Shown: piece after piece, positions 2,137-63,065 of the stretch
Position numbering within the stretch: the first letter of the stretch is position 1
Layout: each line of letters starts with the position of its first letter
Assembly (NCBI GenBank): GCA_035546335.1
Contig: DATKDP010000056.1
Location: forward strand, 120,577 to 184,576
Direction: 5' to 3'
From: Thermoanaerobaculia bacterium
GTDB lineage: Bacteria; Acidobacteriota; Thermoanaerobaculia; Gp7-AA8
DNA length: 64,000 nt
Notes under the pieces: generated by a model
What the model saw: only the letters and a program-made list of their open reading frames with translations
Told to the model about the DNA's origin: nothing
Database searches by the model: none
Translations under genes and position numbers: made by a program

Positions 2137-2531
2137 GACGCCGCATCCGAGGTCAGCGTCACCGAGTTGAATCGTCCCTCCCAGATGGTGACGGTCATGA
2201 CGACCGCATTCTCCGGCATGACGGAGGCCGAGAGACGATCGAAGAACCACCGGGCGAGGTTCTCAGCCGAGGGATTGATCTCGTCGAACGGGGTGACCTC
2301 GTTCAGATAGGTGTAGTCGAGCTCCTTCGCCAGGCGCTCGAGATGCCGCCGGGCACTCACGAAATCGACCGCGATGTCGTCGTCGTCCAGCTCCCGAGCC
2401 GCCCCCGACAACTCCGCCTCGACCTTGTACGAATGGCCGTGCAGCGGCTCGGTGACCCCGCGATAGCTGCGAAGATTGTGAGCCGCTTCGAAAAACGCTT
2501 CGACGCGAATCGCGAACCGCGATCTCATCAC
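2133..2531 (-). CDS. queD: 6-carboxy-5,6,7,8-tetrahydropterin synthase (QueD / 6-pyruvoyl-tetrahydropterin synthase family)
   Basis: MRSRFAIRVEAFFEAAHNLRSYRGVTEPLHGHSYKVEAEL...TVTIWE. Matches the QueD/PTPS fold signature (CxxxHGH, E...H). Confidence 0.8.
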   Translation of the reverse strand: MMRSRFAIRVEAFFEAAHNLRSYRGVTEPLHGHSYKVEAELSGAARELDDDDIAVDFVSARRHLERLAKELDYTYLNEVTPFDEINPSAENLARWFFDRLSASVMPENAVVMTVTIWEGRFNSVTLTSDAAS

Positions 2532-2719
2532 TCGCTTCTCCAGAGATGCTCGACCAGCTCTCTGTCGACACCCGCTTCGAGCAGCTCCTCGCGCGTGAAG
2601 TGGGATCGAAGAAGGACTTCGGCACGTTCCGTTCCCCAGCAGCTCGTGAAATCCGAACTGTCGGCGATCAAAGCGAGAAGCTCGATTCGTTTTCGCCGTG
2701 ACTCGTCCATCGATCTCAA
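2528..2719 (-). CDS. small acidic hypothetical protein (about 60 aa), possibly translationally coupled to queD
   Basis: ORF MRSMDESRRKRIELLALIADSSDFTSCWGTERAEVLLRSHFTREELLEAGVDRELVEHLWRSE. Its stop abuts the queD start. No recognisable motif. Confidence 0.25.
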   Translation of the reverse strand: MRSMDESRRKRIELLALIADSSDFTSCWGTERAEVLLRSHFTREELLEAGVDRELVEHLWRSE

Positions 2720-2841
2720 TCCGTGCCACTCCTCCGGTGAGGAGGCATTATCGCGACTTTTCGCTTACCTGTCACCGAGCTCGCGAGCCGGCCCGAGGTC
2801 GTTCGCGAAGAGTCGTGTAGAATTCCGCCTCGCAACGAATA

Positions 2842-3350
2842 TGCCGTTACCGAAGAGCCTTCTCTGCGCCTCCTGCAAACACACCTACCCTGAAGGGTGG
2901 AGACGCTGCCCCTATTGCGGATACGACGCGGCAAGGGCAAAAAAAACGGCGGACGAAGCCAGACGACCGGGCGTCCAAAACAAAGGGGAGGAGCGTCGAG
3001 ATCAAGGCGATTCACGGCGGCGTGCGTCTCAGCCCAACAGGAGCGGGCGCCCAAGACCTCCGGCGGCTGGCACGCAGCAGCCGAAGCAACGACCTCAGCC
3101 TGCTCCCTCGTCACAGCCTCCAGCCGAGCGAGCCGCCGACGGCATGCGCCGGAAGCGGCGCCGGAGGCGGCGCGGAAAACAGAACGCCGCAGAAGGAACG
3201 GCGAGTGCGGAGTCCCCGAGAACACCCGCAGTCAGCACGGAGAAACCGGAAACTCCTCGGAACGGAGTGCCGGCAGCACCTCCGCAGCCGCCGCCTTCGA
3301 CCGATCAACCACGGCGACGACGGCGGCGCCCACGCCGGCGCCGCCCCTAG
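2842..3350 (+). CDS. putative zinc-ribbon protein with long Arg/Pro-rich low-complexity tail
   Basis: MPLPKSLLCASCKHTYPEGWRRCPYCGYD (CxxC-N12-CxxC) followed by a disordered tail ending RRRRRRPRRRRP. Three frames are open across 2850-3500, so the coding call is uncertain. Confidence 0.3.
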
Positions 3351-3354
3351 TCAA

Positions 3355-3440
3355 GCACCCGGACGAAGCTATTGCGCTGCGTTGCGGCATAGCAAGCCCT
3401 CGGCTCTGTCCCTCGCGCAAATGCTTCGTCCCTACGAAGA
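3355..3440 (+). repeat. about 86-bp inverted-repeat dispersed element (MITE/REP-like), copy 1
   Basis: Terminal IRs GCACCCGGACGAAGCTATTGCGCTGCG ... CGCGCAAATGCTTCGTCCCTACGA are near-perfect reverse complements. Four more copies lie at about 49394-49480, 49575-49662, 51860-51937 and 52029-52118. This copy sits between the convergent 3' ends of the Zn-ribbon ORF and the rhomboid-like gene. Confidence 0.8.
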
Positions 3441-3511
3441 GCACGGCAAGGGTGCTCTCGCCTCTCGCCTCTCGTCTCTCGCCTCTCAGGCGCTGGACGC
3501 CCGCTCTGGGT

Positions 3512-4441: not shown

Positions 4442-4559
4442 CCCGCTCTCTCGGGAGCGCTTCCAGGGCGCCGCTCGTCTGGGCAACAGATGCGGCGCTC
4501 TCGAAAGTCCCATCGGGAGTGATTCCGGCGCGTGCGCATTGCCCAGCACGTCGTCGGTT

Positions 4560-4660
4560 CGCGCGCGTCACAGGAGCGGGCGCGGGACGCCCGCTCTCCC
4601 CGACGGTCGGCGACATCTTCGCGCGCGTCACAGGGGCGGGCGCGGGACGCCCGCTCTCCC
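4560..4660. repeat. tandem duplication (period about 59 bp) of a GC hairpin motif CGCGCGTCACAGGRGCGGGCGCGGGACGCCCGCTCTCCCC
   Basis: Two near-identical units at 4560-4601 and 4618-4660 (1 mismatch). Each contains a 9-bp stem GAGCGGGCG/CGCCCGCTC with loop cggga. The same hairpin recurs at 49527-49553, 51938-51965, 54258-54290 and, as a variant, at 62991-63029. Confidence 0.85.
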
Positions 4661-4701
4661 CGGGCCGGCGTCGCCGCTCACGACGCAGCGACACCGTCTC
4701 G

Positions 4702-5217
4702 TCAACGGACCTCGAGCGCCTGGACCGCGTGAAACTTCACGCCCTTTCCCGCAGCCACACCGTGCTCGCGGGCAGCACCAGCGCGCAGTTCGAGCACGTA
4801 ACGCGCAGCGGCGCGCGGCGCATAGCTGGGGCACGGGTCTGCGCGACACGGCGGTACGTGCTCCGCGACATCGACGATGGCCAACGTCTCGTCGATCCAG
4901 ATGATGTCGAGGGGGATCATCGTGTTCTTCATCCAGAAGGGATAAATGTCCGTCGCGGGGAAGAGGAACAGCATGCCTCGTCCCTCGGGCACACTTTCGC
5001 GATACATCAATCCCTGTTGCCGCATCGCCTCGTCGGCCGCGATCTCGACCGCGATCGGCGTTCCGTCCGGCAACACCACGGTCGGAACATCCCGGTTCGT
5101 CTGCGGAGGGGCGGGAGCCGCCGGAGGCGGCTCGGTGCCGCGACCCGGCTGGCAGCCGGCGAGCAGCATCGCCGTCACGATCGTGATCGAGGCGCACAGA
5201 GGAGTCATGTCAGTCAC
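4702..5217 (-). CDS. DUF192-family lipoprotein
   Basis: Lipoprotein signal (MLLAGC). MLFLFPATDIYPFWMKNTMIPLDIIWIDETLAIVDV matches the DUF192 core. Its start overlaps the stop of the upstream response-regulator gene. Confidence 0.7.
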   Translation of the reverse strand: MTDMTPLCASITIVTAMLLAGCQPGRGTEPPPAAPAPPQTNRDVPTVVLPDGTPIAVEIAADEAMRQQGLMYRESVPEGRGMLFLFPATDIYPFWMKNTMIPLDIIWIDETLAIVDVAEHVPPCRADPCPSYAPRAAARYVLELRAGAAREHGVAAGKGVKFHAVQALEVR

Positions 5218-10731: not shown

Positions 10732-12261
10732 ATGCGATTTTCACCACGACCTGCACTCGCGATCGTCCTCATCTTCGGTTGCGCCGTCCTCGCCCGGGCC
10801 CAGGACCTTCGTTCCTTCGAAAAGAAGGTGACGACGAAGGTGCTCGACAACGGGCTCACCCTGATCGTCGTCGAGCGCCCGGAAGCTCCGGTGTTCTCGT
10901 TTTTCGTACATGTCGACGCCGGCTCTTCGCAGGAAGTTCCCGGGATCACCGGACTCGCGCACATGTTCGAGCACATGGCCTTCAAAGGGACCGACAAGAT
11001 CGGTACGACCGACTGGCCTGCGGAAAAGGTTGCCCTCGAGCGAGTCGAATCGGCCTATGCCGCCTACAGCCGCGAACGGCTGCGGCAAACAGGGCGTGAC
11101 GAAGCGAGGCTCGCCGAGCTGGAAAAGGGGTGGCGCGACGCGATGGCCGCTGCCGATCAGTACGTCATCCCGAGCGAGTTCGAAGAGATCCTCGAGCGGG
11201 AGGGAGGCCGCGACGCAAACGCGTTCACCAGCAACGACGAGACCGCCTATTTCTACTCGATGCCTTCGAACCGCCTCGAGCTGTGGGCTCATCTCGAATC
11301 CGAGCGCTTTCTCACGCCGGTGATGAGAGAGTTCTACAAAGAACGCGACGTGGTCGTCGAGGAGCGGAGAATGCGTGTGGAGAGCGATCCGTTCGGAATC
11401 CTCTTCGAAGAGTTCCTCGCTCAAGCCTTCGCCGCCCACCCTTACGGCTTGCCGGGAACCGGCTGGCCTTCCGACCTCGAATCGTTCTCGGCAACCGACG
11501 CAATGGAGTTCTATCGAACCTATTACGTCCCGGCGAACATGGTCGTTGCAGTCGTCGGCGATGTCCGGGCGGGAGAGGTGATACCGCTTGCCGAGAAATA
11601 CTACGGACGCCTCCCCTCGGGCGCCGAGCCGCCGACGCTCCGCACCGTGGAGCCTCCGCAGAGCGGCGAGCGGACCGTCCTTCTCCGCCTATCCGCGCAG
11701 CCCGTCTATCTCGAGGGATACCACAAACCGAGCACGCTCCATCCGGACGACTCGATCTACGAAGTCATCGGCGACCTGATGTCGACGGGAAGGACCTCGC
11801 GCCTCTACCGCGCCCTCGTGCGCGATCAGCGGATCGCGGCATGGTCCGCCGGCTTCAATGGTCTGCCCGGGGAGAAGTATCCCAATCTCTTCGCCTTCGC
11901 AGCGATTCCGACGCCGGGACACACTCCCGGCGAGCTGCGCCGAGCCATCCATGCCGAGATCGAGCGCCTGAAAAAAGAGGACGTCACTGACGAGGAGCTG
12001 CGGATGGTCAAGACGCGCGCGAAGGCGGCTCTGATCCGCGGTCTCGACAGCAACGCCGGGCTCGCCGCTCAGCTGGCGACAGCACACGCCCGCCATGGCG
12101 ACTGGCGCGAGCTGTTCCGGCAGGTCGACAAGATCGAAAAGGTGACCAAAGCCGACATTCGCCGCGTGGCGAACGAAGTGTTCGTCGAGTCGAACCGCAC
12201 GGTCGGCATCATCGAGACTCGCACGACCGGCACTCCGAGCCAGGAAGGAACGGACGAATGA
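10732..12261 (+). CDS. M16 (pitrilysin/insulinase) family zinc peptidase, active subunit
   Basis: Signal peptide. HMFEHMAFKGT (HxxEH inverted zincin motif). 509 aa. Confidence 0.85.
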   Translation: MRFSPRPALAIVLIFGCAVLARAQDLRSFEKKVTTKVLDNGLTLIVVERPEAPVFSFFVHVDAGSSQEVPGITGLAHMFEHMAFKGTDKIGTTDWPAEKVALERVESAYAAYSRERLRQTGRDEARLAELEKGWRDAMAAADQYVIPSEFEEILEREGGRDANAFTSNDETAYFYSMPSNRLELWAHLESERFLTPVMREFYKERDVVVEERRMRVESDPFGILFEEFLAQAFAAHPYGLPGTGWPSDLESFSATDAMEFYRTYYVPANMVVAVVGDVRAGEVIPLAEKYYGRLPSGAEPPTLRTVEPPQSGERTVLLRLSAQPVYLEGYHKPSTLHPDDSIYEVIGDLMSTGRTSRLYRALVRDQRIAAWSAGFNGLPGEKYPNLFAFAAIPTPGHTPGELRRAIHAEIERLKKEDVTDEELRMVKTRAKAALIRGLDSNAGLAAQLATAHARHGDWRELFRQVDKIEKVTKADIRRVANEVFVESNRTVGIIETRTTGTPSQEGTDE

Positions 12262-13709
12262 GAGAGCTCAGCAGGAGAAAAACCACAGCCGTCGTTCTGC
12301 TGCTGGTCGCCACATTGACCGCTCCTCTCGCAGCGCAGGTCGAGCACTGGGAGGAGATTCGGATCCCGCCGCTGCGAGCGATGAAAATCGAGCAGCCGAA
12401 AAAGATCGTTCTCGGCAACGGAATGACGATCTTCCTGATGGAGGATCGCGAGCTACCGCTCATCCGCGGCAGCGCAATCGTGCGCGGAGGATCACGCGAC
12501 GAGCCCGCCGCCAGAGTGGGTCTCGCCGATGTCTACGGCGAAGTCTGGAGAACGGGCGGGACGAAGTCGAAGACCGGCGATGAGCTCGACGACTTTCTCG
12601 AAGCTCGTGCCGCGCGCGTCGAGACGGGAAGCGGCATCGACTCGACGACGATCGGCTTCGATACATTGAAGTCGGACTTCGGCGAAGTGTGGACCATCTT
12701 CGTCGATCTTCTTCGCAATCCCGCCTTCCGCCCGGAGAAGATCGTACTCGCCCGAAACCAGCTCGAGACGGTGATCGCACGCCGCAACGACGATCCGCTG
12801 GAAATCGCCGGCCGCGAATCGATCAAGCTCGTCTACGGACCAGCATCTCCCTACGCGCGCACGATCGAATACGCGACCGTCGCTGCGATCACTCGCGACG
12901 ACCTCGCCGCGTGGCACCAGCGACACGTGCATCCGAACAACATCATTCTGGGAATCGTGGGCGACTTCGATACCCGATCGATGGAGCGAACGATCCGAGG
13001 CGCGTTCGAACGCTGGCCGAAAGGCCCGTCCATACCTCGCGCGGATGATGCGATCACCCCGGCCGAGCCGGGCATGTACTTCGTCGCCAAAGACGACGTG
13101 ACGCAGAGCAACATACGGATCGTGCACCTCGGTACGACCCGCAACAACCCCGATTACTGGGCACTCGAGGTCATGAACGAGCTGTTCGGAGGAGGGAGCG
13201 CATCGCGCCTCTACGGCAACATTCGCTCGCGCAAGGGACTCGCATACAGCGTCGGCGGCGGGGTGGGAAGCAGCTACGATCGCCCCGGGGCCTTCCGCGT
13301 GGTGATGGGAACCAGAAGCGGCAGCACCGCGGCAGCAATCGACGCACTTCTCGAGGAGATCGACAGGCTTCAGCGTGATCCGATCACGCCGGCAGAGCTG
13401 AAGCGCGCCAAAGAGACGATTCTCAACTCGTACATTTTTCGCTTCGATCGCAGAGAAAAGATCCTCAACCAGCAGATGCTCCTCGCTTTTTACGGCTATC
13501 CTCCCGACTTCATCGAGCGCTATGCAAAAGAGGTGGAGAAGGTGACAGCCGAGGACGTGAGCCGCGTCGCGAAAAAATACATCGATCGCAATCGCGCGGC
13601 GATCCTCGTGGTCGGCCGCGCGGCCGACTTCGATCGTCCCCTCTCGACCCTCGGTCCCGTCCGGACGATCGACATCACCATCCCCGAACGGAATCCATCA
13701 CTCGAGTGA
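12258..13709 (+). CDS. M16 family peptidase, second (likely non-catalytic) subunit
   Basis: Signal peptide. M16 fold with no HxxEH. ATGA start overlap with the upstream M16 gene. Confidence 0.75.
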   Translation: MRELSRRKTTAVVLLLVATLTAPLAAQVEHWEEIRIPPLRAMKIEQPKKIVLGNGMTIFLMEDRELPLIRGSAIVRGGSRDEPAARVGLADVYGEVWRTGGTKSKTGDELDDFLEARAARVETGSGIDSTTIGFDTLKSDFGEVWTIFVDLLRNPAFRPEKIVLARNQLETVIARRNDDPLEIAGRESIKLVYGPASPYARTIEYATVAAITRDDLAAWHQRHVHPNNIILGIVGDFDTRSMERTIRGAFERWPKGPSIPRADDAITPAEPGMYFVAKDDVTQSNIRIVHLGTTRNNPDYWALEVMNELFGGGSASRLYGNIRSRKGLAYSVGGGVGSSYDRPGAFRVVMGTRSGSTAAAIDALLEEIDRLQRDPITPAELKRAKETILNSYIFRFDRREKILNQQMLLAFYGYPPDFIERYAKEVEKVTAEDVSRVAKKYIDRNRAAILVVGRAADFDRPLSTLGPVRTIDITIPERNPSLE

Positions 13710-14826: not shown

Positions 14827-15597
14827 GTGATGCGAATCAACCCGCTGCTCGCCGCGAGCCTCATACTCGGATGCGCGCTTCAGACGCCGCTGAATAGATA
14901 CGGCCTGCCGGTCATCGACTCGGTCGCGATCTACCAGAGAAGCGTCCGGCTCGATTCTTCGAAGGCGATGATCGATCTCGCGCGGCACGCACCTTCGATC
15001 CGACTCGACATTCGCTACGCGAGCGAGAACAACTTCATGGGGAAGGTCCTCTACCCGGAGGCCCGTGCGTTTCTACGGCTGCCTGCGGCCGACGCCATCC
15101 GGGCGATTCAGCAGGAGCTGTCGGCTGAAGGAATCGGCCTGAAGATCTTCGACGCCTATCGTCCCTATCACGTCACCGAGATGATGTGGGAGCCGTACAA
15201 GGATCCGAATTATGTCGCCGATCCTGCGAAGGGCTCGCGACACAATCGCGGAGCGGCGGTCGACGTCACGCTCGTTCGCCTCGATTCAGGGGAGGAGCTG
15301 GCCATGCCGACCGCCTACGACGACTTCACGCCGCGCGCCGCGCACGCCTTCACCGATCTCCCCGCAGAGGTCCTCGAGAACCGGGCACGCCTCAGAGCCG
15401 TCATGGAGAAGCATGGATTCGAGGCTCTGGAGTCGGAATGGTGGCATTACGACTACACCGGCTGGCGGCGCTTCGAGCTGATGGATCTTCCCTTTTCAGC
15501 GTTCGGTTCACAGCCGGAAACAGGGGCAATTGGGGAGCGGCCTCCCGGCCCGATCGAGGCGGCGTCCCGCCGCCCCTCCCAAACCACGCAGATCTGA
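14827..15597 (+). CDS. D-alanyl-D-alanine dipeptidase (VanX/DdpX, M15D) lipoprotein
   Basis: Lipobox (ASLILGCA). DIRYASENNF, IFDAYRPYHVTEMMW, GSRHNRGAAVDVTL, EWWHYD motifs. About 35-aa C-terminal low-complexity tail. Confidence 0.75.
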   Translation: MMRINPLLAASLILGCALQTPLNRYGLPVIDSVAIYQRSVRLDSSKAMIDLARHAPSIRLDIRYASENNFMGKVLYPEARAFLRLPAADAIRAIQQELSAEGIGLKIFDAYRPYHVTEMMWEPYKDPNYVADPAKGSRHNRGAAVDVTLVRLDSGEELAMPTAYDDFTPRAAHAFTDLPAEVLENRARLRAVMEKHGFEALESEWWHYDYTGWRRFELMDLPFSAFGSQPETGAIGERPPGPIEAASRRPSQTTQI

Positions 15598-15639
15598 CGA
15601 GGCTCGCCTGGCGATGGCGAGGGCGCCCATGAAGTGCAC

Positions 15640-17558: not shown

Positions 17559-17626
17559 GGGTCGAATGCCTCCGACGATTCGCTGACGTTGCCGAGTCCT
17601 GAAAGCTGAGACAGAGCTGAGTCTAG

Positions 17627-17850
17627 GTGGCAGGCTCGGGGAAAGTCAACTCGGGGCTCGAGGCTCGAGGCTCGAGGCTCGAGGCTCGAGGCTCGGGGCT
17701 CGGGGCTCGGGGCTCGGGGCTCGGGGCTCGGGGCTCGGGGCTCGGGGCTCGAGGATTCCCACGACCTGGATTTCGAGCCTCTAGTCTCGAGCCTCTAGTC
17801 TCGAGCCTCTAGTCTCGAGCCTCTAGTCTCGAGCCTCTAGTCTCGAGGTG
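17627..17850. repeat. tandem heptamer array (GGCTCGA)5(GGCTCGG)8 followed by (TCGAGCCTCTAGTC)5, forming a long imperfect palindrome
   Basis: Direct reading of 17660-17752 and 17773-17848. The 14-mer contains TCGAGCC, the reverse complement of GGCTCGA. Short copies also lie at 49318-49340 and 49690-49715. The proS stop codon (TAG) lies inside the 14-mer array. Confidence 0.9.
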
Positions 17851-19554
17851 GGCAGCGACTTCCGCGGTCACCTCGCTGGGCGAGCTCATCCTCTTCTGCC
17901 GTCCGGCGCGGAGGCTCCACTCGACCTGTCCGTTGGCCAGGCTCCTGCTGCCGACGACGATGCGGATGGGAAACCCGATGAGATCGGCGTCCTTGAACTT
18001 CACGCCCGGCCGTTCATCACGATCATCGTAGATCACATCGATTCCGGCGCCGAGAAGCTGGTCGTAGATCTTCGAGGCGACATCGAGCACGGCCTCGTCG
18101 TTTCCGGCGGCGGTGACGACGACCTCGAACGGTGCAATCTGAACTGGCCAGACGATGCCGTCGTCGTCGTGACTCTGTTCGATCGCCGCGGCGACCGTGC
18201 GCCCGATTCCGAGCCCGTAGCAACCCATGACCATCGGCTGCCGTTCCCCGTTCTCGTCGAGAAAGACGCAGTTCATCTTCGACGAGTATTTGGTGCCGAG
18301 CTTGAAGACGTGACCGACCTCGATTCCTCGATGAATTTCCAGAGGAGCCCCGCAGGTGCAGCATGGATCTCCGGCCGCAACGAGCGTGAAATCGGAAAAA
18401 CTCGCGAGATCGATCGCGAAGTCACGTCCCGGTCGCGCTCCGCTGAGGTGCGTATTCTGCTTATTTCCGCCGACGATCCAGTTCGCGAACGATCGAAGGG
18501 ATTCGTCCGCGACGATCCGCAGTCCTTCCTTCGCGCGGACGGGACCGCAGTAGCCGACGGGCCCGCCCGTGACCTGCTGGAATCGTTCGTCGGGAAGCAT
18601 CTCCAGTGTCTGCACTCCGAGAAAGTTCCTGATCTTGATCTCGTTGGCTTCCCGATCGCCGCGAACGAGCACCATCACCGCCCCCTGCTCGGTGTCGAAT
18701 ACGAGCGTCTTCACGAGTCGGGAGGTGGGGATTCCGAGGAATCGGCCGACATCGTCGATCGTCTGCGTGCCGGGTGTCGCGATCTCGGTCAACTCTTCGG
18801 CCGGCTCTTCGCCGGCGGCATCCGGGCCGCGATGAAACGCCGAGACCGCCTTCTCGAGATTAGCGGCATAGCTGCAACCCGGGCAGCGCACGACCGCATC
18901 CTCACCCGACTGAGCGAGGACCATGAACTCGTGCGATGCGGAGCCGCCGATGTTTCCGGTGTCGGCCTCGACGGGCACGTGATCGAGACCGCAGCGCTCG
19001 AAGATGCGGCTGTAGGCGGTGCGCATTTTCTGGTAGGTCTCATCGAGCGAATCGACGCTCGTATGAAAGGAGTAGGCGTCCTTCATGATGAACTCTCGAC
19101 CGCGCATCAATCCGAACCGGGGGCGGATCTCGTCGCGGAATTTCGTCTGGATCTGATAGAGGTTGAGCGGCAGGCTGCGATAGGACGAGATCGCATCACG
19201 GACGGTCTCGGTGATCACTTCCTCGTGCGTGGGGCCGAAGACGAAGTCGCGGTCATGGCGGTCCTTGATTCGAAGCAGCTCTTTGCCGTACACCTGCCAT
19301 CGCCCGGACGCCATCCAGAGCTCGGCTGGCTGAATGGCGGGCATGAGCAGCTCGACCGCGCCCGCGCGGTTCATCTCCTCGCGAACGATCGCTTCGAGCT
19401 TTCGAATCGATCGGAGGCCGAGAGGGAGGTAGGTGTAGATGCCGGCGGCGACTTTGCGGATCATCCCGGCCCGCATCATCAGCTTCTGGCTGATCACATC
19501 GGCATCTGCGGGAACCTCCCGCAGCGTGTTGATGAAATATCGACTCCAGCGCAT
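17809..19554 (-). CDS. proS: prolyl-tRNA synthetase (bacterial type)
   Basis: MRWSRYFINTLREVPADADVISQKLMMRAGMIRK... class II aaRS motifs plus editing domain. The last about 10 codons (ETRGSRLEARD) are encoded by the 14-mer repeat. Confidence 0.9.
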   Translation of the reverse strand: MRWSRYFINTLREVPADADVISQKLMMRAGMIRKVAAGIYTYLPLGLRSIRKLEAIVREEMNRAGAVELLMPAIQPAELWMASGRWQVYGKELLRIKDRHDRDFVFGPTHEEVITETVRDAISSYRSLPLNLYQIQTKFRDEIRPRFGLMRGREFIMKDAYSFHTSVDSLDETYQKMRTAYSRIFERCGLDHVPVEADTGNIGGSASHEFMVLAQSGEDAVVRCPGCSYAANLEKAVSAFHRGPDAAGEEPAEELTEIATPGTQTIDDVGRFLGIPTSRLVKTLVFDTEQGAVMVLVRGDREANEIKIRNFLGVQTLEMLPDERFQQVTGGPVGYCGPVRAKEGLRIVADESLRSFANWIVGGNKQNTHLSGARPGRDFAIDLASFSDFTLVAAGDPCCTCGAPLEIHRGIEVGHVFKLGTKYSSKMNCVFLDENGERQPMVMGCYGLGIGRTVAAAIEQSHDDDGIVWPVQIAPFEVVVTAAGNDEAVLDVASKIYDQLLGAGIDVIYDDRDERPGVKFKDADLIGFPIRIVVGSRSLANGQVEWSLRAGRQKRMSSPSEVTAEVAAHLETRGSRLEARD

Positions 19555-36000: not shown

Positions 36001-36340
36001 CTCGTGGTGAGCGCGAAGCGCCACCACCGGTCACGGCACGACACGTCATGAAGTCGCGGCACCCCGAAGGGGTGAATGGAACACAGCCGGTGGTGAGCGC
36101 GAAGCGCCACCACCGGAACTGCGACGTTCCGCCGAAAGAACGCGGCACCCCGGAAGGGGTGCCCGGATCCCCTTACCAGAGGAATCGTGAATCGAACTCG
36201 AGTCCATTCGCTTCACCACCGGCTGTGTTCCGGGCACCCCTTCGGGGTGCGGGATGTGACGATGTGTTGTGCCCTGACCGGTGGTGGCGCTTCGCGCTCA
36301 CCACCGGCTGGAATCCCTGCACCCCTTCGGGGTGTCGTTG
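36001..36340. repeat. composite palindromic cluster of two alternating hairpin motifs (H1 CCGGTGGTGAGCGCGAAGCGCCACCACCGG; H2 GCACCCCGAAGGGGTGC)
   Basis: H1 at 36003-36030 and 36086-36115, reverse at 36278-36310. H2 at 36057-36075, 36143-36165, 36233-36255 and 36317-36338. Left-arm units are reverse complements of right-arm units around about 36190. Confidence 0.85.
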
Positions 36341-38063: not shown

Positions 38064-38084
38064 GGGGGGAGAGTATAGGGGATG

Positions 38085-38280
38085 AGAGTAGAGGGCAGAT
38101 AGCAGAGGGCAGAGGGCAGATAGCAGAGGGCAGATGGCAGATGGCAGATGGCAGATGGCAGAGAGCAGATAGCAGAGAGAGGGCGTGGAAGGCGGTCGGG
38201 AGGGGGAACGCAGACGGCAGATGCGAAGCGCGCATCTTCCGTCTGCTATCTGCTATTTGCTATCTGCTCTATCCGCTCTC
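38085..38280. repeat. tandem octamer array (GGCAGATR/GCAGAGG) plus inverted partner array (CTGCTATCT) forming a large imperfect palindrome with a central 15-bp stem
   Basis: 38091-38180 (GGCAGATG x4 perfect). 38211-38245 hairpin CAGACGGCAGATGCG-aag-CGCATCTTCCGTCTG. 38246-38280 is the reverse-complement array. Confidence 0.9.
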
Positions 38281-45311: not shown

Positions 45312-45396
45312 CGACATCGTGAGGTGGATCTGCGGCCGGATCGCGGGAAGCCTCGCGGTCCGGCTTTTGTTTTTTCACCGACCGGAGGTGACTCAT

Positions 45397-49299: not shown

Positions 49300-49745
49300 G
49301 CCCGGCGTCGAGTAGCGAGGCTCGGGGCTCGAGGCTCGAATGGCAACCGGTCTTTGGCCGCGTCGATGGTTCTCAGGAAACCCCGTCGAATTCTCGTAGG
49401 GGCGAAGCATTTGCGCGCAGGCCGCAGCGACAGGCTCGCGTTACCGGAGCGCAGCGCAATAGCTTCGCCCGGGTGCTTGCGAGAATGTGACATGGCGGTG
49501 GGTCGATTCGCGCCGCCCTGCAACCCGGGGCGGCGCGGGACGCCCGCTCTCCCGCAGAGGTTCGTTCGATCATCGCAAGCACCCGGACGAAGCTATTGCT
49601 CTCCGTTACGGCGTTGCAAGCCCGCCGCTCTGTCCATCGCGCAAATGCTTCGTCCCTACGAGGGCCGCCCGTCGATGTTCCGGAAGCCCCCCTCGAGCCT
49701 CGAGTCTCCAGCCTCCCCCCCGCGCATCTCCGCTACAATCGATGG
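49300..49745. repeat. composite repeat cluster: heptamer fragment, MITE-like copy (reverse), GC hairpin, MITE-like copy (forward), heptamer fragment
   Basis: 49318-49340 GGCTCGGGGCTCGAGGCTCGA. 49394-49480 element copy 2 (reverse). 49527-49553 GGGGCGGCGCGGGACGCCCGCTCTCCC. 49575-49662 element copy 3. 49690-49715 CCTCGAGCCTCGAG. Confidence 0.85.
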
Positions 49746-49746
49746 A

Positions 49747-50151
49747 GTGCAGAGAAGCTGCTCACGGCTGGCCGGGTTCACGCTGGTCGAGATCCTGGTG
49801 GCGCTCGTCATACTCGGCCTGATCGTGACGACGTCGCTGGCCATCTTCTACGATCGCCAGAAACGGCTGCGGGCCGCGGATGAGATGATCATCGCCTGGC
49901 AGATTCTCGCCAACGAGGCGGAGGTCTGGAGGCACCGCCCGTACGACTCTCTCGTGCCCGGCGCATCCTCCGCGTTTCTCTCCGATCCGGAGCTTCTCGC
50001 GCAGCTCCCGGGCGCCAAGGCGTCAGCGGCAATCGAGCACTCCGGGCCGGCATTGAGAAGCATTCACCTGACAATCCACTGGAGCGACAGCGCGAAGAAA
50101 GCCGAGGTCGCAGTACTGCGGAGCGACACGGGAGGAGGAAGCCTGTGGTGA
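49747..50151 (+). CDS. prepilin-type N-terminal cleavage/methylation domain protein (pseudopilin, GspG/H-like)
   Basis: GTG start gives leader MQRSCSRLAG followed by FTLVEILVALVILGLI (class III signal). Confidence 0.6.
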   Translation: MQRSCSRLAGFTLVEILVALVILGLIVTTSLAIFYDRQKRLRAADEMIIAWQILANEAEVWRHRPYDSLVPGASSAFLSDPELLAQLPGAKASAAIEHSGPALRSIHLTIHWSDSAKKAEVAVLRSDTGGGSLW

Positions 50152-50645
50152 GCAGGCGGCGGCCGAGCGGCTTTTCTCTGATGGAGATGGTCGTGGCGAT
50201 CGCGCTGCTCGGAATCTTTCTTCTCGTTCTCGTCGCTCTGGAAAGCGAGATGTTCCGGCTCGAGCGGTCGATCCGGATCAACATGATGTCGCATCCCGAT
50301 CCGACCGCTGTGCTGAGCCGGTTGCGGCGCGACGTCCTCGACTCTCACGGCTATCCGGAGGCGATCGATGGTCACGAGCAGAGCGAATCGACTCTGATCC
50401 TGCTCGGCCTGGCGGAAGATGGAGCGTGGGAGACGATCGCATGGGACTTCAGCGAAGAGGGGGTGGCGCGACGGATCACCTACAGAAGCGGGGAGAAGGT
50501 GGGAGAATGGACCGCCGGAAACGTCCCCGTTTTCACGATCGCGAGCTTCGACATGCCGGATGGCGGGGTCGCGGTGCGCGTTCAGGCCCGCCACGGAGGG
50601 AAGCTTGCAATCGACGGGATTTTCCAGCCGCGCATCCACGGCTGA
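50145..50645 (+). CDS. prepilin-type pseudopilin
   Basis: MVSRRRPSG-FSLMEMVVAIALLGIF. Confidence 0.6.
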   Translation: MVSRRRPSGFSLMEMVVAIALLGIFLLVLVALESEMFRLERSIRINMMSHPDPTAVLSRLRRDVLDSHGYPEAIDGHEQSESTLILLGLAEDGAWETIAWDFSEEGVARRITYRSGEKVGEWTAGNVPVFTIASFDMPDGGVAVRVQARHGGKLAIDGIFQPRIHG

Positions 50646-51024
50646 CCAGCGAGGTTTCGCACTGATCAGCGCGCTGGTTCTGGCGATGCTCTTCTTCGCC
50701 CTCATGACGCTCGTGATGGTCGAGTCGACGTCCGCCTTGCGATCCGCGACGCGATTCCGCGCGCGCGTCCGTGCCGAGATCCTCGCCGAGAACGCCGCCG
50801 AGCTGGCCGCCAGGAACATGGTCAGCGCACCCGGCTCCGACGCAACCCTTCAGAACGATGACGGCACGATGCACGGCAGCTATCGGCGCCTGGCGGAGAA
50901 TCGGTTCGAGATCACCGGGACCGGAGACGCGGCGGGCCCGATGAAAGTCTCCGCGAGAGTCCGCCTCTTCGGAACCGTGGAAGGGAGCACGATTCGACTC
51001 GATCGGACGATCCACGGGCGATGA
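50560..51024 (+). CDS. prepilin-type pseudopilin-like protein (start uncertain)
   Basis: ...QRG-FALISALVLAMLFFAL. The only in-frame ATG upstream of the G-F site is at 50560, giving an 85-nt overlap with the previous gene. The ATG at 50686 would remove the cleavage motif. Confidence 0.4.
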   Translation: MAGSRCAFRPATEGSLQSTGFSSRASTADQRGFALISALVLAMLFFALMTLVMVESTSALRSATRFRARVRAEILAENAAELAARNMVSAPGSDATLQNDDGTMHGSYRRLAENRFEITGTGDAAGPMKVSARVRLFGTVEGSTIRLDRTIHGR

Positions 51025-51863
51025 AGGCGGGAACGCGAGGGTTGATACCGGTCCTGCTGTCGGTGCTGGTCATCGCCGGCTGCATGGACCGCGAGCAGCG
51101 GGCGTTCTCGCTCGGGACGACGACGAGCATCGAGAACTCCGGTCTTCTGGCCCACCTCACCCGCGCATTTCACGAGCACCACGGAATCGCCGTCCGGCCG
51201 ATTGTGGTCGGCTCGGGAAAGGCGCTGCGTCTCGCCGAGCAGGGAACCATCGATCTGGTCCTCTCACACGACCGGCACGGTGAGCAACGTCTCCTCCAGA
51301 GCGGGCGCGTTGCGCTCTACCGGCAGTTCATGCGCAACGATTTCGTGATCGCCGGTCCTGCGGAGAACCCCGCCGGCCTCGAGCAGAGCGACACGCCTTC
51401 CGCGGCGCTGGCGAAGATCGCATCTTCCGGCAATCGATTCGCCTCGAGAGGAGATCAGTCGGGAACTCACATCCGGGAGCTCTCCCTCTGGCGCGAAGCC
51501 GGAATCGACCCCCGACAGCGTTCCTTCTATTACCCGCTGGGACAGTCGATGAGCTCTCTTCTTCGTTCGTCCAGTGAGCTGCGCGCCTACGTTCTGACCG
51601 ATCGCGCCACCTTCGAGCAGGTCCGCAGCGCGATTGCCCTGACGATTCTGATCGAGGACCACCCTTCGCTCGAGAACCTGTACGCCGTGACGCTCATGCA
51701 ACCGACAGCCCGCAATCGGGAGGAGTGGGAGCATGCGCGCCTATTCGCCGAATGGCTGCTTTCCGCCGAGGGGATGGCAGCGATCTCGAGTTTCACGATT
51801 CGAGGCCGGACCGTTTTCGTTCCGATCGAACCAGGCCGCGTCCCGCCGTCAAACTCCCCGTAG
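51021..51863 (+). CDS. tupA: tungstate/molybdate ABC-transporter substrate-binding lipoprotein (TupA/WtpA-like), orphan
   Basis: Lipobox (VIAGC). FSLGTTTSIENSGLL...PIVVGSGKALRLAEQGTIDLVLSHD...NDFVIAGP...FASRGDQSGTH matches TupA. No permease or ATPase genes adjacent. The stop TAG lies inside a repeat-element terminus. Confidence 0.7.
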   Translation: MKAGTRGLIPVLLSVLVIAGCMDREQRAFSLGTTTSIENSGLLAHLTRAFHEHHGIAVRPIVVGSGKALRLAEQGTIDLVLSHDRHGEQRLLQSGRVALYRQFMRNDFVIAGPAENPAGLEQSDTPSAALAKIASSGNRFASRGDQSGTHIRELSLWREAGIDPRQRSFYYPLGQSMSSLLRSSSELRAYVLTDRATFEQVRSAIALTILIEDHPSLENLYAVTLMQPTARNREEWEHARLFAEWLLSAEGMAAISSFTIRGRTVFVPIEPGRVPPSNSP

Positions 51864-52135
51864 GGACTTGTGCGAGGGACAGAGTGGGGAACTTGCGAAA
51901 CCGCAGCGCAGCGCAAATGCTTCGTCCGGGTGCTTGCAGGGAGAGCGGGCGTCCCGCGCCCGCCTCGGGTGGGCGGGTGGCGCGCATTCAGGCGGTTCAT
52001 GCGAGCACGTGCCGAAGCTGCCGTGCTCCTCGTAGGGACGAAGCATTTGCGCGAGGGACGGCGCAGGGGACTTGACAGAGCGCAGCGCAGCGCAATAGCT
52101 TCGTCCGGGTGCACGGGTAGCCCGCAAACGGTCCT
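51860..52135. repeat. composite repeat cluster: MITE-like copy 4 (reverse, small internal deletion), GC hairpin (reverse), MITE-like copy 5 (reverse)
   Basis: 51860-51937; 51938-51965 GGGAGAGCGGGCGTCCCGCGCCCGCCTC; 52029-52118. Confidence 0.85.
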
Positions 52136-54257: not shown

Positions 54258-54290
54258 GACAGGTGCGGGCGCGAAACGCCCGCTCTCCCC
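54258..54290. terminator. GC hairpin (GCGGGCG-cgaaa-CGCCCGC) between convergent GGDEF-EAL and EF-G genes; probable bidirectional terminator or REP-like element
   Basis: Member of the conserved hairpin family. Lies in the 69-bp gap between stop codons at 54223 and 54293. No U-tract. Confidence 0.4.
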
Positions 54291-54292
54291 TA

Positions 54293-56380
54293 CTAGGCGT
54301 GCTCGGCTTCGTGCGGCTTCTTCGATTCGGCGATGATCTTTTCCTGAAGATTCCTCGGCACTTCCTCGTAATGTGAGAACTCCATGTGGAACGAGCCGCG
54401 ACCCTGCGTGATCGAGCGAAGCGCCGAGCCGTAAGCCAGCATCTCCGCCATCGGCACGTGGGCCTTGATGACCTGCGTGTCGCCTTCGATGTCGATCCCG
54501 TCCATTCTTCCCCGCCGGGAGGTGAGATCTCCCATCAGGTCGCCGATGTACTCGCTGGGGGCATAGACCACGACGTTCATGATCGGCTCGAGAAGAGTGG
54601 GCTTTGCATTGGCCATCGCGTCTTTGAAGGCGAGAGCCCCGGCGATCTTGAAGGCCAGCTCGGACGAGTCGACCGGATGGAACTGGCCGTCGACCAATCG
54701 GATGCGGAAGTCCACCACCGGATAGCCGGCGAGATATCCCTGTATCCGGGCATCCTGAATCCCCTTCTCGACCGCAGGGATGTATTGGCGGGGAATCGAT
54801 CCGCCGAAGATGTCGTCGACGAACTCGAACTCGGCACCGCGCTCGAGCGGCTCCATTCTGATCTTGCAATCGGCGAACTGCCCGTGCCCGCCGGTCTGTT
54901 TCTTGTGGCGCCCATGCGCATCCGTCGCGCGGGTGATGGTCTCGCGATAGGGGACCTTCGGTGGATGGAGGATGACGTCCACGCCGTATTTTTTCTTGAG
55001 CTTTCCGACGGCGACCTCGACGTGCAGCTGCCCCTGTCCCGAGATCAGCATCTCCTTGGTCTGTTCGTCGCGACCGAATCGGATGGCGGGGTCCTCCTCC
55101 ATCACTCGGGCCAGTGCCGTGGAGATTTTGTCCTCGTCGCCTTTGGATTTCGGCTCGAGCGCGAAGGCGATCGCCGATTCGGGGTAGGCGATGTGATCGA
55201 GCTGGACAACGTGATCGCGCGCGCAAATCGTGTCGCCGGTTCGCGTGTCCTTCAGCTTGGCCACCGCTCCGATGTCTCCCGCCCGAAGCTCGGACACGGG
55301 AACCTGCTGCTTGCCCTGCAGCAGCTGCAGCTTGCCGACCCGCTCTTCGTGATCGCGGCTGCTGTTCCAGTACGCCGAGTCCGATTTCACGGTTCCCGAG
55401 AAAACGCGGAATGCCGAAACGCGGCCGGCGAACGGATCCGAGGTGGTCTTGAAGACGAGCGCCGCCGGAAACGCCTCGGCCCGTCGCTCGATCCGCATCT
55501 CCTCGCCGTTCTTTCCTTTGCCGGCAACCTCGCCTTCGACCGGTGAGGGAAGGAGCGTGACGAACGCATCGAGCAGAGCATGACCCCCGATGTTGTGCGA
55601 CGAAGAGTCGAACAGGAGAGGAAAGACGGCCCGCGCCGCGATCTCGCGCCGCAGCCCCTCCACCAGTTCCTCCTGCGAAAGCCCCCCCTCCTCGAAGAAG
55701 CGCTCCATCAGGGTGTCGTCTCCCTCCGCCACTTTCTCGATCAGTTTCTCCCTCCACTCCTCCGCGGTCGCCCTCAGCTCGGCAGGGACCTCGATGTCCT
55801 CGTATTTTCCCGAGCCGTCTGTGTCGTAGCGGAACGCTCTCATCGAGAGGAGATCGACGACGCCGTGAAAATCCTTCTCTTCGCCCATCGGAAGCTGGAT
55901 CGGAACGACGTTCCTGCCGAACTTCCTCTGCAGCGAGTCGATCGTCCTCTGGGCCGATGCGCGTTCACGATCCATCTTGTTGGACACGATGATCGAGGGG
56001 AGCCCCATCTCCTCGGCGAATTTCCAGACTTTCTCGGTCGTGACTTCGACGCCGGTGACCCCGCTGACGACCACGGCGGCAGCATCGGCCACGCGCATGC
56101 CGCTCCTGGCCTCGGTCAGAAAGATGCCGAATCCCGGCGTGTCGATGAGGTTGATCTTCTTTTCCTTCCACTCAGCGAACGCGACCGCAGCCGAGATCGA
56201 GTGTTTTCGCTCGATCTCATCGGCGTCGAAGTCGGTCACCGTGGTACCGTCATCGATGCTGCCAAGGCGCGTAACCGCCCCTGAATTGAACAATAACTGG
56301 GCGACGAGGGTCGTCTTCCCCGTGTCGTTGTGCCCCACCACGGCGATGTTTCGAATCTCGGGTCCCGAATAAACCTTCAT
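54293..56380 (-). CDS. fusA: elongation factor G paralog (standalone, not in str operon)
   Basis: MKVYSGPEIRNIAVVGHNDTGKTTLVAQLL (G1), DTPGF, all five EF-G domains. GAGGAG RBS. Confidence 0.85.
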   Translation of the reverse strand: MKVYSGPEIRNIAVVGHNDTGKTTLVAQLLFNSGAVTRLGSIDDGTTVTDFDADEIERKHSISAAVAFAEWKEKKINLIDTPGFGIFLTEARSGMRVADAAAVVVSGVTGVEVTTEKVWKFAEEMGLPSIIVSNKMDRERASAQRTIDSLQRKFGRNVVPIQLPMGEEKDFHGVVDLLSMRAFRYDTDGSGKYEDIEVPAELRATAEEWREKLIEKVAEGDDTLMERFFEEGGLSQEELVEGLRREIAARAVFPLLFDSSSHNIGGHALLDAFVTLLPSPVEGEVAGKGKNGEEMRIERRAEAFPAALVFKTTSDPFAGRVSAFRVFSGTVKSDSAYWNSSRDHEERVGKLQLLQGKQQVPVSELRAGDIGAVAKLKDTRTGDTICARDHVVQLDHIAYPESAIAFALEPKSKGDEDKISTALARVMEEDPAIRFGRDEQTKEMLISGQGQLHVEVAVGKLKKKYGVDVILHPPKVPYRETITRATDAHGRHKKQTGGHGQFADCKIRMEPLERGAEFEFVDDIFGGSIPRQYIPAVEKGIQDARIQGYLAGYPVVDFRIRLVDGQFHPVDSSELAFKIAGALAFKDAMANAKPTLLEPIMNVVVYAPSEYIGDLMGDLTSRRGRMDGIDIEGDTQVIKAHVPMAEMLAYGSALRSITQGRGSFHMEFSHYEEVPRNLQEKIIAESKKPHEAEHA

Positions 56381-58729: not shown

Positions 58730-59242
58730 ATGGACACCGGGGCCATCAACTTCAAGCAGTGGATCGAGGAGTACCGGCATCTTCTCCAACCGCCGGTTGG
58801 AAACAAGAAGGTCTTCGACAGCGACGAGTTGATCGTCATGGTCGTCGGCGGTCCGAACAGTCGCAAGGATTACCACATCGACGAAGGTCCCGAGTTCTTC
58901 TATCAGCTCGAAGGGGAGATGCTCCTCAAGACCATCCAGGATGGAAACGTCGTCGACATCCCGATTCGCAGCGGAGAGATCTTCCTGCTGCCGCCGCGCG
59001 TACCTCACTCGCCGCAACGCTTCCCGAATTCCGTCGGCCTGGTCATCGAGCGCAAGCGCCTCGAGAACGAGCTCGACGGCCTTCAGTGGTATTGCGACAA
59101 CTGTACGAACCTGCTCTATGAGGAGTTTTTTCCGCTGAAGAACATCGAGAAAGACTTTCCTCCGGTGTTCGACCGCTTTTTCGGCAACATCGAGCATCGC
59201 ACCTGCGACCGATGCGGAACGGTGATGCCGCCACCGAAGTGA
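58730..59242 (+). CDS. 3-hydroxyanthranilate 3,4-dioxygenase (cupin) with C-terminal rubredoxin-like Cys4 site
   Basis: [32 protein letters not shown]...[11 protein letters not shown]...WYCDNC...CDRCG. Confidence 0.85.
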
Positions 59243-59265
59243 GCCGCACTGGCTCGATTCTCAAC

Positions 59266-60294
59266 GTGCTCAAGATCGACATCCACACTCACATCCTGCC
59301 GGAGCGGTGGCCCGACCTGGCCGGCAGATACGGCTACGGCGGATTCGTGGCTCTCGAACATCATCGTCCCGGAAAGGCTCGGATGATGATCGACGACACC
59401 TGCTTCCGCGAGATCGGAAGCAACTGCTGGGACCCGGAGGTCCGCCTCGCGGAATGCGACCGTGAAGGAGTCGACGTCCAGGTTCTTTCGACCGTTCCCG
59501 TCATGTTCAGCTACTGGGCGAAGGCGCAGGATGCACTCGATCTCGCGCGGATGCTCAACGATCACATCGCCGGAGTCGTGCACGATCACCCGAAGCGCTT
59601 CGCCGGCCTCGCTACGCTGCCGATGCAGGATGCCGATCTCGCGGTCCGCGAGCTCGAGCGCGCCGTCCGCGAGCTCGGCCTCGCTGGCGTGCAGATCGGC
59701 ACGAACGTCAACGGAACGAATCTCGACGCGCCTGAGCTCTTCCCGGTTTTCGAGGCCGCATCCGATCTGGATGTGGCGATCTTCGTCCACCCCTGGGAAG
59801 TGGTCGGTCGCGAGCGCATGGCGAAGTACTGGCTTCCGTGGCTCGTCGGGATGCCGGCGGAGACCTCGCTGGCGATCTGCTCACTGATCTTCGGCGGAGT
59901 CCTCGAACGGCTTCCCCGGCTGCGCATCGCCTTCGCGCACGGTGGAGGCGCCTTTCCCACGACCATAGGGCGCATTGCACGCGGCTTCGAAGCGCGTCCC
60001 GATCTCTGCGCCGTCGACAACGAGGTCGACCCGCGCGAATATCTCACCAGAATCTACGTCGACTCTCTTTCACACGATCCGCGGATCCTCTGCTACATGG
60101 TCGATGCCATGGGCGCAGACCGAATCGCCCTCGGAACCGACTATCCGTTCCCCCTGGGAGAGCGTCATCCCGGCGAGATCGTCGATTCCTGCGGCTTCGA
60201 TGAACCGACCGTCGCACGTCTGTTTCATGGTACGGCCCTCGAGTGGCTCGGAATGGAGCGGGAGCAGTTCGTCCCCGACGGCGGTTCGAGATGA
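59266..60294 (+). CDS. 2-amino-3-carboxymuconate-6-semialdehyde decarboxylase (amidohydrolase-2 family)
   Basis: [11 protein letters not shown] ... HPW ... FAHGGGAFP ... [13 protein letters not shown] start at 59266 (the ATG at 59212 is the alternative). Confidence 0.8.
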
Positions 60295-62931: not shown

Positions 62932-62990
62932 GGACGCTTTCAACCTGCGCTCCTGGGCGCTGGTCTGTCACAGTTGCCGGACTCGCGAGG

Positions 62991-63029
62991 GGCGGCGGGA
63001 CGCCGCCTCGATCGGGCGAGGACGCCCGA
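62991..63029. terminator. pair of short GC hairpins (GGCGGCG-gga-CGCCGCC; TCGGGCG-agga-CGCCCGA) between convergent kmo and DAO genes
   Basis: Lies in the 134-bp gap between the two stop codons. Variant of the conserved hairpin family. Confidence 0.35.
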
Positions 63030-63065
63030 CCCCCTCGGACGCGGGCATCCTCTCCGCGTGACTCT

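Follow-up and report, generated by a model that had tools for sequence, protein, structure and literature searches.

The question raised by this locus is what a G+C-rich hairpin, present as a tandem pair at 4560-4660 and again at several distant places, does between the genes of an acidobacterium. The stretch analyzed here (the window) comprises 64 kb of a metagenome-assembled genome (MAG) of a Thermoanaerobaculia bacterium (Acidobacteriota), and all window counts refer to these 64 kb. An earlier note on this DNA had described the hairpin, here called A, as lying preferentially between convergent gene ends, and had proposed for it either a terminator or RNA-protective function or the nature of a repetitive extragenic palindromic (REP)-like element recognized by a REP-associated tyrosine transposase (RAYT). 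Our findings suggest that A is probably a lineage-specific, insertional repeat family of the REP/REPIN type, which occurs in a mosaic with other repeat families, and that a terminator or RNA-protective role, if there is any, would be secondary.

The recurrence of the hairpin was confirmed. A covariance model (R1), built from six copies and run unfiltered over the whole window, returned five matches at 46-54 bits, the next best match reaching 13.5 bits. Two of them constitute the tandem pair: A1 (4558..4602, plus strand; 54.4 bits), with the hairpin GAGCGGGCG-CGGGA-CGCCCGCTC at 4574-4596 and the tail TCCCC (-20.4 kcal/mol), and A2 (4618..4662, plus strand; 54.1 bits), which ends 39 nt from the stop codon of a DUF192 gene. 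These 45-nt units form a direct repeat and differ, as had been noted, by one mismatch (98% identity), but their starts lie 60 nt apart and not 59. The single copies that had been placed near 49527, 51938 and 54258 were located at 49529-49547, 51945-51963 and 54265-54283, and correspond to A3 (49523..49557, plus strand; 46.1 bits), with intact 3' arm, loop and tail and a degenerate 5' arm, to A4 (51935..51969, minus strand; 48.6 bits), in reverse orientation, and to A5 (54259..54293, plus strand; 50.1 bits), with the loop variant CGAAA. The 18-mer CGGGACGCCCGCTCTCCC was found four times exactly and once with two mismatches, when about 0.5 occurrences are expected at three or fewer mismatches, and the pattern CGGGCG-N3-5-CGCCCG occurs five times against 0.135 in shuffled sequences. 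The density of five copies per 64 kb extrapolates to about 80 per Mb.

The A unit measures about 25-35 nt and consists of a G+C stem of 7-9 bp that closes a 5-nt loop (CGRRA) and is followed by the unpaired tail TCTCCC, which on the opposite strand becomes a head GGGAGA. In size and shape it is what a REP is, a short imperfect palindrome able to form a stem-loop, and as RNA the hairpin folds at -16 to -21 kcal/mol on either strand. The core, GCGGGCG-CGGGA-CGCCCGC followed by TCTCCC, lies at 4576-4594 and 4636-4654 in the tandem pair and recurs at the positions given above, in A3 with the 5' arm damaged. The two sides of the hairpin are not equally conserved. Loop, 3' arm and unpaired tail do not vary among the window copies or in a further copy from outside the window, the only exception to the stretch shown above as an 18-mer being the loop variant of A5, and what varies is the 5' arm and everything beyond about 28 nt. 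Regarding the flanks that had been taken as conserved, the TCTCCC tail is present in all copies, whereas the 5' flank CAGG is common to three of the five only.

Variant forms of the hairpin were also identified. What had been reported as a degenerate pair at 62991-63029 is a real double hairpin, A' (62980..63033, plus strand), which reads GGGGCGGCG-GGA-CGCCGCCTC and then TCGGGCG-AGGA-CGCCCGA plus a C-rich tail (-30.6 kcal/mol); its second hairpin obtains 12.6 bits in R1. It occupies the convergent gap between an FAD monooxygenase gene and a DAO gene. A second A' copy, overlooked before, lies on the minus strand at 15532..15598, with a core (15548-15574) identical in 27 of 27 positions to 62991-63017; it stands at a convergent junction with a CBS-domain gene and overlaps the last codons of an M15 peptidase open reading frame (ORF; 14827-15597). 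Equally overlooked was a degenerate A copy on the plus strand (3486..3510, core 3486-3504; TCAGGCGCTGGACGCCCGCTCTGGG; 9.3 bits), found directly 3' of the stop codon of a rhomboid gene, beside a (CTCTCGC)n array and a copy of another repeat family, B. As a side observation, the last gene of a co-directional, ordinary-looking kynurenine-pathway cluster (58730-62931; 3-hydroxyanthranilate dioxygenase, Amidohydro_2 protein, kynureninase and a KMO-like FAD monooxygenase) adjoins the A' site at 62980..63033.

All five A copies, which represent four independent loci, fall in the 8-9% of the window that is non-coding in the gene map of this analysis. Four of the five lie downstream of a stop codon and one is in a divergent gap. 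The tandem pair had been assigned to a convergent gap, but the minus strand carries both its neighbors, the DUF192 gene (4702-5217, stop codon at 4702-4704) and the rhomboid gene, which extends from 3512 to about 4441 (alignment of the N-terminus puts its start no higher than 4441), and therefore the pair stands between co-directional genes, as does A4 (51945). A3 is flanked by the divergent gltX and a pilin-like gene. The other two sites described as convergent, GGDEF-EAL/fusA and kmo/DAO, were upheld: A5 sits in a 69-nt convergent gap between the GGDEF-EAL and elongation factor G (EF-G) genes, its tail ending 2 nt short of the EF-G stop codon (54293-54295). The preference for convergent gaps is weaker than had been stated, since it concerns one of the four core loci, in addition to two variant loci and two loci in relatives. 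In the published cases (PMC3733652), most REPs occupy gaps between co-directional or convergent ORFs; in many instances the distance to a 3' end is below 20 bp, and a REP can overlap the end of an ORF. This matching placement, together with the other properties shared with REPs, is why we read A as a lineage-specific REP-like family.

Comparison with relatives at the window's own loci points in the same direction. The order PilR-DUF192-rhomboid-PTPS-DUF1802-DnaJ, found on the minus strand of the window, is kept in relatives whose PilR is 82-83% identical. The gap between the DUF192 and rhomboid genes is 10 nt long in two JGI contigs and 36 nt long and hairpin-free in L039, against at least 260 nt containing A1 and A2 in the window, and the gap between the DUF1802 and DnaJ genes is 2 nt in those contigs against 184 nt with a B copy in the window. 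The DUF192 gene of a more rearranged relative, L040, has at its 3' end a further palindrome, which is an inverted heptamer array. No A copy was found in L028-L030, contigs carrying an EF-G 78% identical to that of the window, and a relative that keeps the Pkinase-EF-G arrangement has, in place of A, an unrelated element downstream of its EF-G gene.

Outside the window, the strict A 25-mer was found in one contig (L027) among the JGI metagenome contigs searched. Neither A nor B had a match in viral contigs, nor the B-A-B composite in a plasmid collection, and a loose hairpin pattern with a free 5-nt loop gave, in a genome collection, at least 25 chance matches in unrelated high-GC genomes, without the CGGGA loop or a common flank. 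The L027 clade and the window share no orthologous genes in the compared sequence. A SpoIIE-type phosphatase beside the L027 copy has graded relatives, which allowed comparison of its convergent junction with a PKD/M10 protein gene. In L027 itself (phosphatase identity 100%) the junction is 107 nt long and holds four hairpins, with inverted A-type hairpins at both ends, the A copy ending 1-2 nt from the convergent stop codon. The corresponding junction holds a perfect AT-rich palindrome of 33+1+33 nt, into which the phosphatase ORF runs, in L032 (97%), a different GC palindrome in L037 (92%), a heptamer-like palindrome in L038 (91%) and no palindrome in L036 (89%), where the two genes overlap by 7 nt. 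Similarly, the convergent junction between chlorite-dismutase-like and MFS genes is empty in L032, has other hairpins in L036 and L038, and in L037 carries a composite of about 180 nt bounded, as in L027, by inverted A-type hairpins. Such inverted pairs have the REPIN layout (L027, 310-421; L037, 63-241; composites of 105-180 nt), which the window copies do not show, A1 and A2 being direct and A4 and A5 single. Hairpins with the CGGGCG/CGCCCG stem are also present in two further Thermoanaerobaculia lineages, L037 and L040, where they are fused to an AGA-loop hairpin whose stem varies between copies with pairing kept. Since junctions are filled in some relatives and empty in others, the element is inserted or lost over short evolutionary distances, and not at the same junctions from one relative to the next; the sites work without it.

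Several inserted palindromes have been absorbed into ORF ends (L032 11490-11572, L036 6220-6300, L037 188-241 and window 15532-15597). In L032 the SpoIIE phosphatase terminates within the AT-rich palindrome and has the C-terminus ...RRGQVFNF*, that of L027 being ...RRME*; MFS C-termini vary by 16-21 residues encoded by inserted hairpins; and the M15 peptidase ORF of the window reads through the A' copy.

A is one module in a dense repeat mosaic, formed in addition by the B element, by heptamer arrays and by the TCGGGCG-AGA-CGCCCGA hairpin. Family B, of about 90 nt, reads GCAAGCACCCGGACGAAGCTATTGCGC...GCGCAAATGCTTCGTCCCTACGAG and has six copies in the window, at 1490-1575, 3352-3448, 49393-49482 (minus), 49573-49662, 51850-51937 (minus) and 52019-52112 (minus). 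Its predicted fold is a long hairpin with the arms GGACGAAGCWTTTGCGC, 22 pairs and one compensatory change. The reverse strand starts CTCGTAGGG, with a GTAG head, and B looks like a GTAG-tagged REPIN or a miniature inverted-repeat transposable element (MITE) more than the A hairpin does. B adjoins or flanks both A3 and A4 and lies near the degenerate A copy. Around A3 the arrangement is B(-)/A3/B(+) (49393..49662), a 270-nt structure whose B arms of about 90 nt are 80% complementary and enclose A3 in a 90-nt spacer. Around A4 it is B/A4/spacer/B (51850..52112, minus strand), all in the same orientation, with A4 lying 2 nt from the B copy at 51850-51937, whose GTAG head provides the stop codon (51861-51863) of the PBP gene.

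Other palindromic structures were observed in gaps of the window and of relatives. Inverted 7-nt tandem arrays, of which (CTCGGGG)n...(TCGAGCCTCTAGTC)n, (GGGCAGA)n...(TCTGCTA)n and (GTTGTCC)n...(GGACAAC)n are examples, occur in the window at 17636-17862, 38065-38279 and 3455-3487, and in relatives at 12096-12345 and 15020-15200 of L028, 995-1077 and 5458-5526 of L032 and 8920-9030 of L040. They make very long intergenic hairpins (-153 kcal/mol for 17559-17808), with a heptamer sequence different at every locus and lineage, and recall the STRR heptamer repeats of cyanobacteria. A super-palindrome of about 330 nt (36004-36337), with units CCGGTGGTGGCGCTTCGCGCTCACCACCGG and GCACCCCGAAGGGGTGC, lies 3' of a 961-aa gene in a 409-nt gap that folds at -271 kcal/mol. 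A separate, widespread palindromic repeat, which contains GTCATCC(C/T)GAGC...GCGA(A/G)GGATC, is absent from the window and recurs in intergenic gaps of several Thermoanaerobaculia relatives (L028 5222-5347, 14585-14681, 21819-21971 and 12132-12262; L032 16151-16254; L038 1230-1260).

An independent assembly is informative about the effect of these repeats. The Logan contig L031 (run SRR8556377) is identical to window positions 49639-51965, and one of its ends falls within a B copy, the other 2 nt after the A4 stem, a pattern that probably reflects breaks caused by repeats in de Bruijn assembly.

The likeness of A to known systems is closest for the REP elements and their mosaics (BIMEs) of E. 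coli and other Proteobacteria. These, like A, are imperfect palindromes of 20-40 nt, extragenic and mostly beside gene 3' ends, with near-identical copies at unrelated loci that are present or absent at orthologous sites, sometimes overlap ORF ends and are clustered with other short motifs into mosaics. Unlike them, A has a TCTCCC/GGGAGA end in place of a GTAG/CGTC tag, its only dimer is head-to-tail and not inverted, and its host is an acidobacterium. In the REPIN-RAYT system of Pseudomonas fluorescens (Bertels and Rainey, 2011; PMC3116915), a family common to diverged lineages is found, as A is, at different loci, and the inverted A-type hairpins around a short spacer in L027 and L037 have its organization, although the window copies are single or in direct pair. 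A further relation is offered by the terminal inverted repeats (TIRs) that flank RAYT-like TIRYT genes, in which a motif GGGGWSAS has been reported, one sharply defined group of these genes being acidobacterial and thus of the same phylum (Di Nocera et al., 2013; PMC3733652). Some of these TIRs are self-complementary and form moderately abundant families, as A may also do. The reverse strand of A1, A2 and A5 begins GGGGAGAG, which fits GGGGWSAS, whereas A3, A4 and the L027 copy have only GGGAGAG, preceded by C or A. The match covers eight degenerate bases, with a chance of about 3e-4 per position; we take the fit as a lead that may link the A family to acidobacterial RAYT-like transposases.

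On these grounds a mode of propagation can be proposed. The A copies, which are not conserved at their present places, probably reached them by insertion or duplication; they occur singly, as the direct tandem pair and in fusions with other repeat modules. The spread may have proceeded via a single-stranded DNA hairpin that is recognized by a transposase of the Y1/HUH class (RAYT or TIRYT type), its gene lying elsewhere in the genome. Copies would persist mainly beside gene 3' ends because insertions there are presumably harmless. In the transcript, so stable a hairpin may incidentally delay 3' exonucleases or RNA polymerase.

A number of points weigh against this reading. The unpaired end TCTCCC(C) of all A copies differs from GTAG and CGTC, by which the two published REP super-families are tagged, and GACG occurs only within the loop/stem; untagged families are nevertheless acknowledged (PMC3733652). 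Copies of A were counted in 64 kb only, when a high copy number per genome, in the tens to hundreds, characterizes REPs, and a direct, head-to-tail tandem pair is unusual for them. By Pfam, no Y1_Tnp or other transposase was found among the approximately 50 window ORFs, which also lack phage genes, and tblastn with the E. coli RAYT and six acidobacterial TIRYTs (seven query sequences from the supplement of PMC3733652) gave nothing below E = 0.4 in 410 kb, the window included, of which other loci account for about 350 kb. Set against the empty sites, neither the L027 nor the L037 insertions show a target-site duplication. Because the nearest relatives found in protein databases are distant (EF-G 78% and PilR 82-83% identical), insertion here and loss there are not strictly separable at the window loci. 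Some kind of palindrome is present in four of five and three of four orthologous junctions of the second clade, and such frequency could equally mean selection for a hairpin at those places. As for the assemblies, the ends of L031 could instead reflect low coverage of GC hairpins, and another contig, L026, ends in unique sequence and not at repeats.

The most serious rival is that the A hairpins are U-tract-independent, often bidirectional, terminators or protective stem-loops selected at gene ends, their repetition reflecting selection for one optimal sequence. The strength of the hairpins is in line with it, as are the location of four of five copies 3' of a stop codon, the distance of 1-2 nt between A5 or the L027 copy and a convergent stop, and the presence of some palindrome at most orthologous convergent junctions of relatives. 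Canonical terminators are moreover nearly absent: a survey of about 37 gene 3' ends gave a single convincing one (45334-45375, with a 14-bp stem at 45334-45365 followed by TTTGTTTTTT), and terminator-like matches numbered 15 against 11.9 +/- 3.0 in shuffled sequences. Like intrinsic terminators, including the proposed U-tract-less "I-shaped" ones, A is a G+C-rich hairpin shortly 3' of stops and is common to convergent genes at two sites. The absence of a U-tract reported earlier was, however, verified for every copy on either strand, the 10 bases past each hairpin holding zero to two T in both orientations, and a terminator consensus scan of the window lists no A site. To our knowledge, hairpins without a U-tract do not cause efficient termination by bacterial RNA polymerases in vitro. 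A terminator does not need the conserved loop and unpaired tail, and what terminators of unrelated genes normally have in common is their structure and not a run of 25 identical bases. Furthermore, A3 lies between divergent genes, in a promoter region, and orthologous 3' ends carry unrelated palindromes or, in L039, L036 and L032, work without a hairpin. We therefore consider this function unlikely as the primary explanation, and of the two proposals made in the earlier note it is the REP-like element, short, palindromic, extragenic, near-identical at unrelated loci and absent from orthologous junctions in relatives, that the data favor. A related idea, likewise unlikely, is that mobile palindromes of many unrelated families are recruited and selected as U-tract-independent, bidirectional 3'-end insulators in Thermoanaerobaculia, which seem to be almost without canonical hairpin-plus-U terminators. 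If true, it would explain the presence of palindromes at nearly every convergent junction examined despite their turnover between flanking genes whose proteins are 89-97% identical, and terminators would be supplied by transposition.

The inverted A-type hairpins that bound the composites of 105-180 nt in L027 and L037, and the 270-nt B(-)/A3/B(+) structure with its 90-nt inverted arms, could also be seen as belonging to a MITE (about 105-270 nt) whose terminal inverted repeats form hairpins and which is mobilized by a DDE transposase and not by a Y1 enzyme, the A copies being its solo ends or fragments. This is quite improbable, since A1, A2 and A5 have no inverted partner, the insertions in L027 and L037 lack, as said, a target-site duplication, and no transposase was seen in the searched sequence. 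MITE-like palindromic repeats such as the Correia elements of Neisseria and the rickettsial RPEs are small non-coding inserts that have inverted ends and can extend into the end of an ORF; A is far shorter than these, and no DDE-type terminal repeat was recognized in it. Very improbable is that the 7-5-7 inverted repeat is the binding site of a dimeric protein (a regulator, a nucleoid-associated protein or gyrase), the copies making up a regulon or a set of structural sites. The perfectly dyad-symmetric arms, their fixed 5-nt spacing and the very high sequence identity would suit such a protein, and REPs of E. coli do bind gyrase, IHF and Pol I (PMC2817692; PMC3733652). Against this, the sites lie at 3' ends of unrelated housekeeping genes and not at promoters, the asymmetric conservation (the TCTCCC tail, the damaged 5' arm of A3) is unlike that of a symmetric operator, and relatives have no sites at the orthologous positions. 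Two further candidates were rejected: a CRISPR, because the tandem units number just two and stand 15 nt apart, cas genes are lacking and the remaining copies are dispersed, and an attC/integron array, as the neighbors are housekeeping genes in conserved synteny.

The repeats described here lie in an ordinary chromosomal region, as indicated by the Pfam annotation of about 50 window ORFs, whose proteins carry accessions HVT43992-HVT44036 (exact-sequence matches), and the G+C content is 61-65% throughout. Genes and families represented are PilR, DUF192, rhomboid, PTPS, two pitrilysins, proS, ribosomal proteins L21/L27, Obg, gltX, pilin-like genes, a phosphate-binding-type PBP, the GGDEF-EAL protein, EF-G and the kynurenine-pathway cluster. 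No tRNA or tmRNA was found in the window, and Rfam gave no match there at gathering thresholds, those at E <= 1 being only spurious miRNA/snoRNA matches on a heptamer array. Near the degenerate A copy, an ORF at 2343-3350 (plus strand) has no family match and is probably spurious, as synteny and Pfam place the PTPS gene on the minus strand there (2133-2729); the gap 3351-3511 was accordingly discarded as a convergent one, having rested on that ORF. Without it, the rhomboid-PTPS interval (2730-3511) comprises 782 non-coding nt, and relatives too have a long interval there (565-855 nt).

If A is, as we consider probable, a REP/REPIN-like family, a REP-type family and a dense palindromic mosaic are documented here in Thermoanaerobaculia, a soil lineage known almost only from MAGs, for which the literature searched contains no earlier description of such repeats. 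Repeats of this kind break short-read assemblies, extend or truncate ORF calls at gene ends, and can pass for terminators or small RNAs. The turnover of junctions among close relatives could help to separate a "safe landing site" from a "selected hairpin" in the case of REPs, and the tail motif provides a concrete route for linking the A family to acidobacterial RAYT-like transposases.

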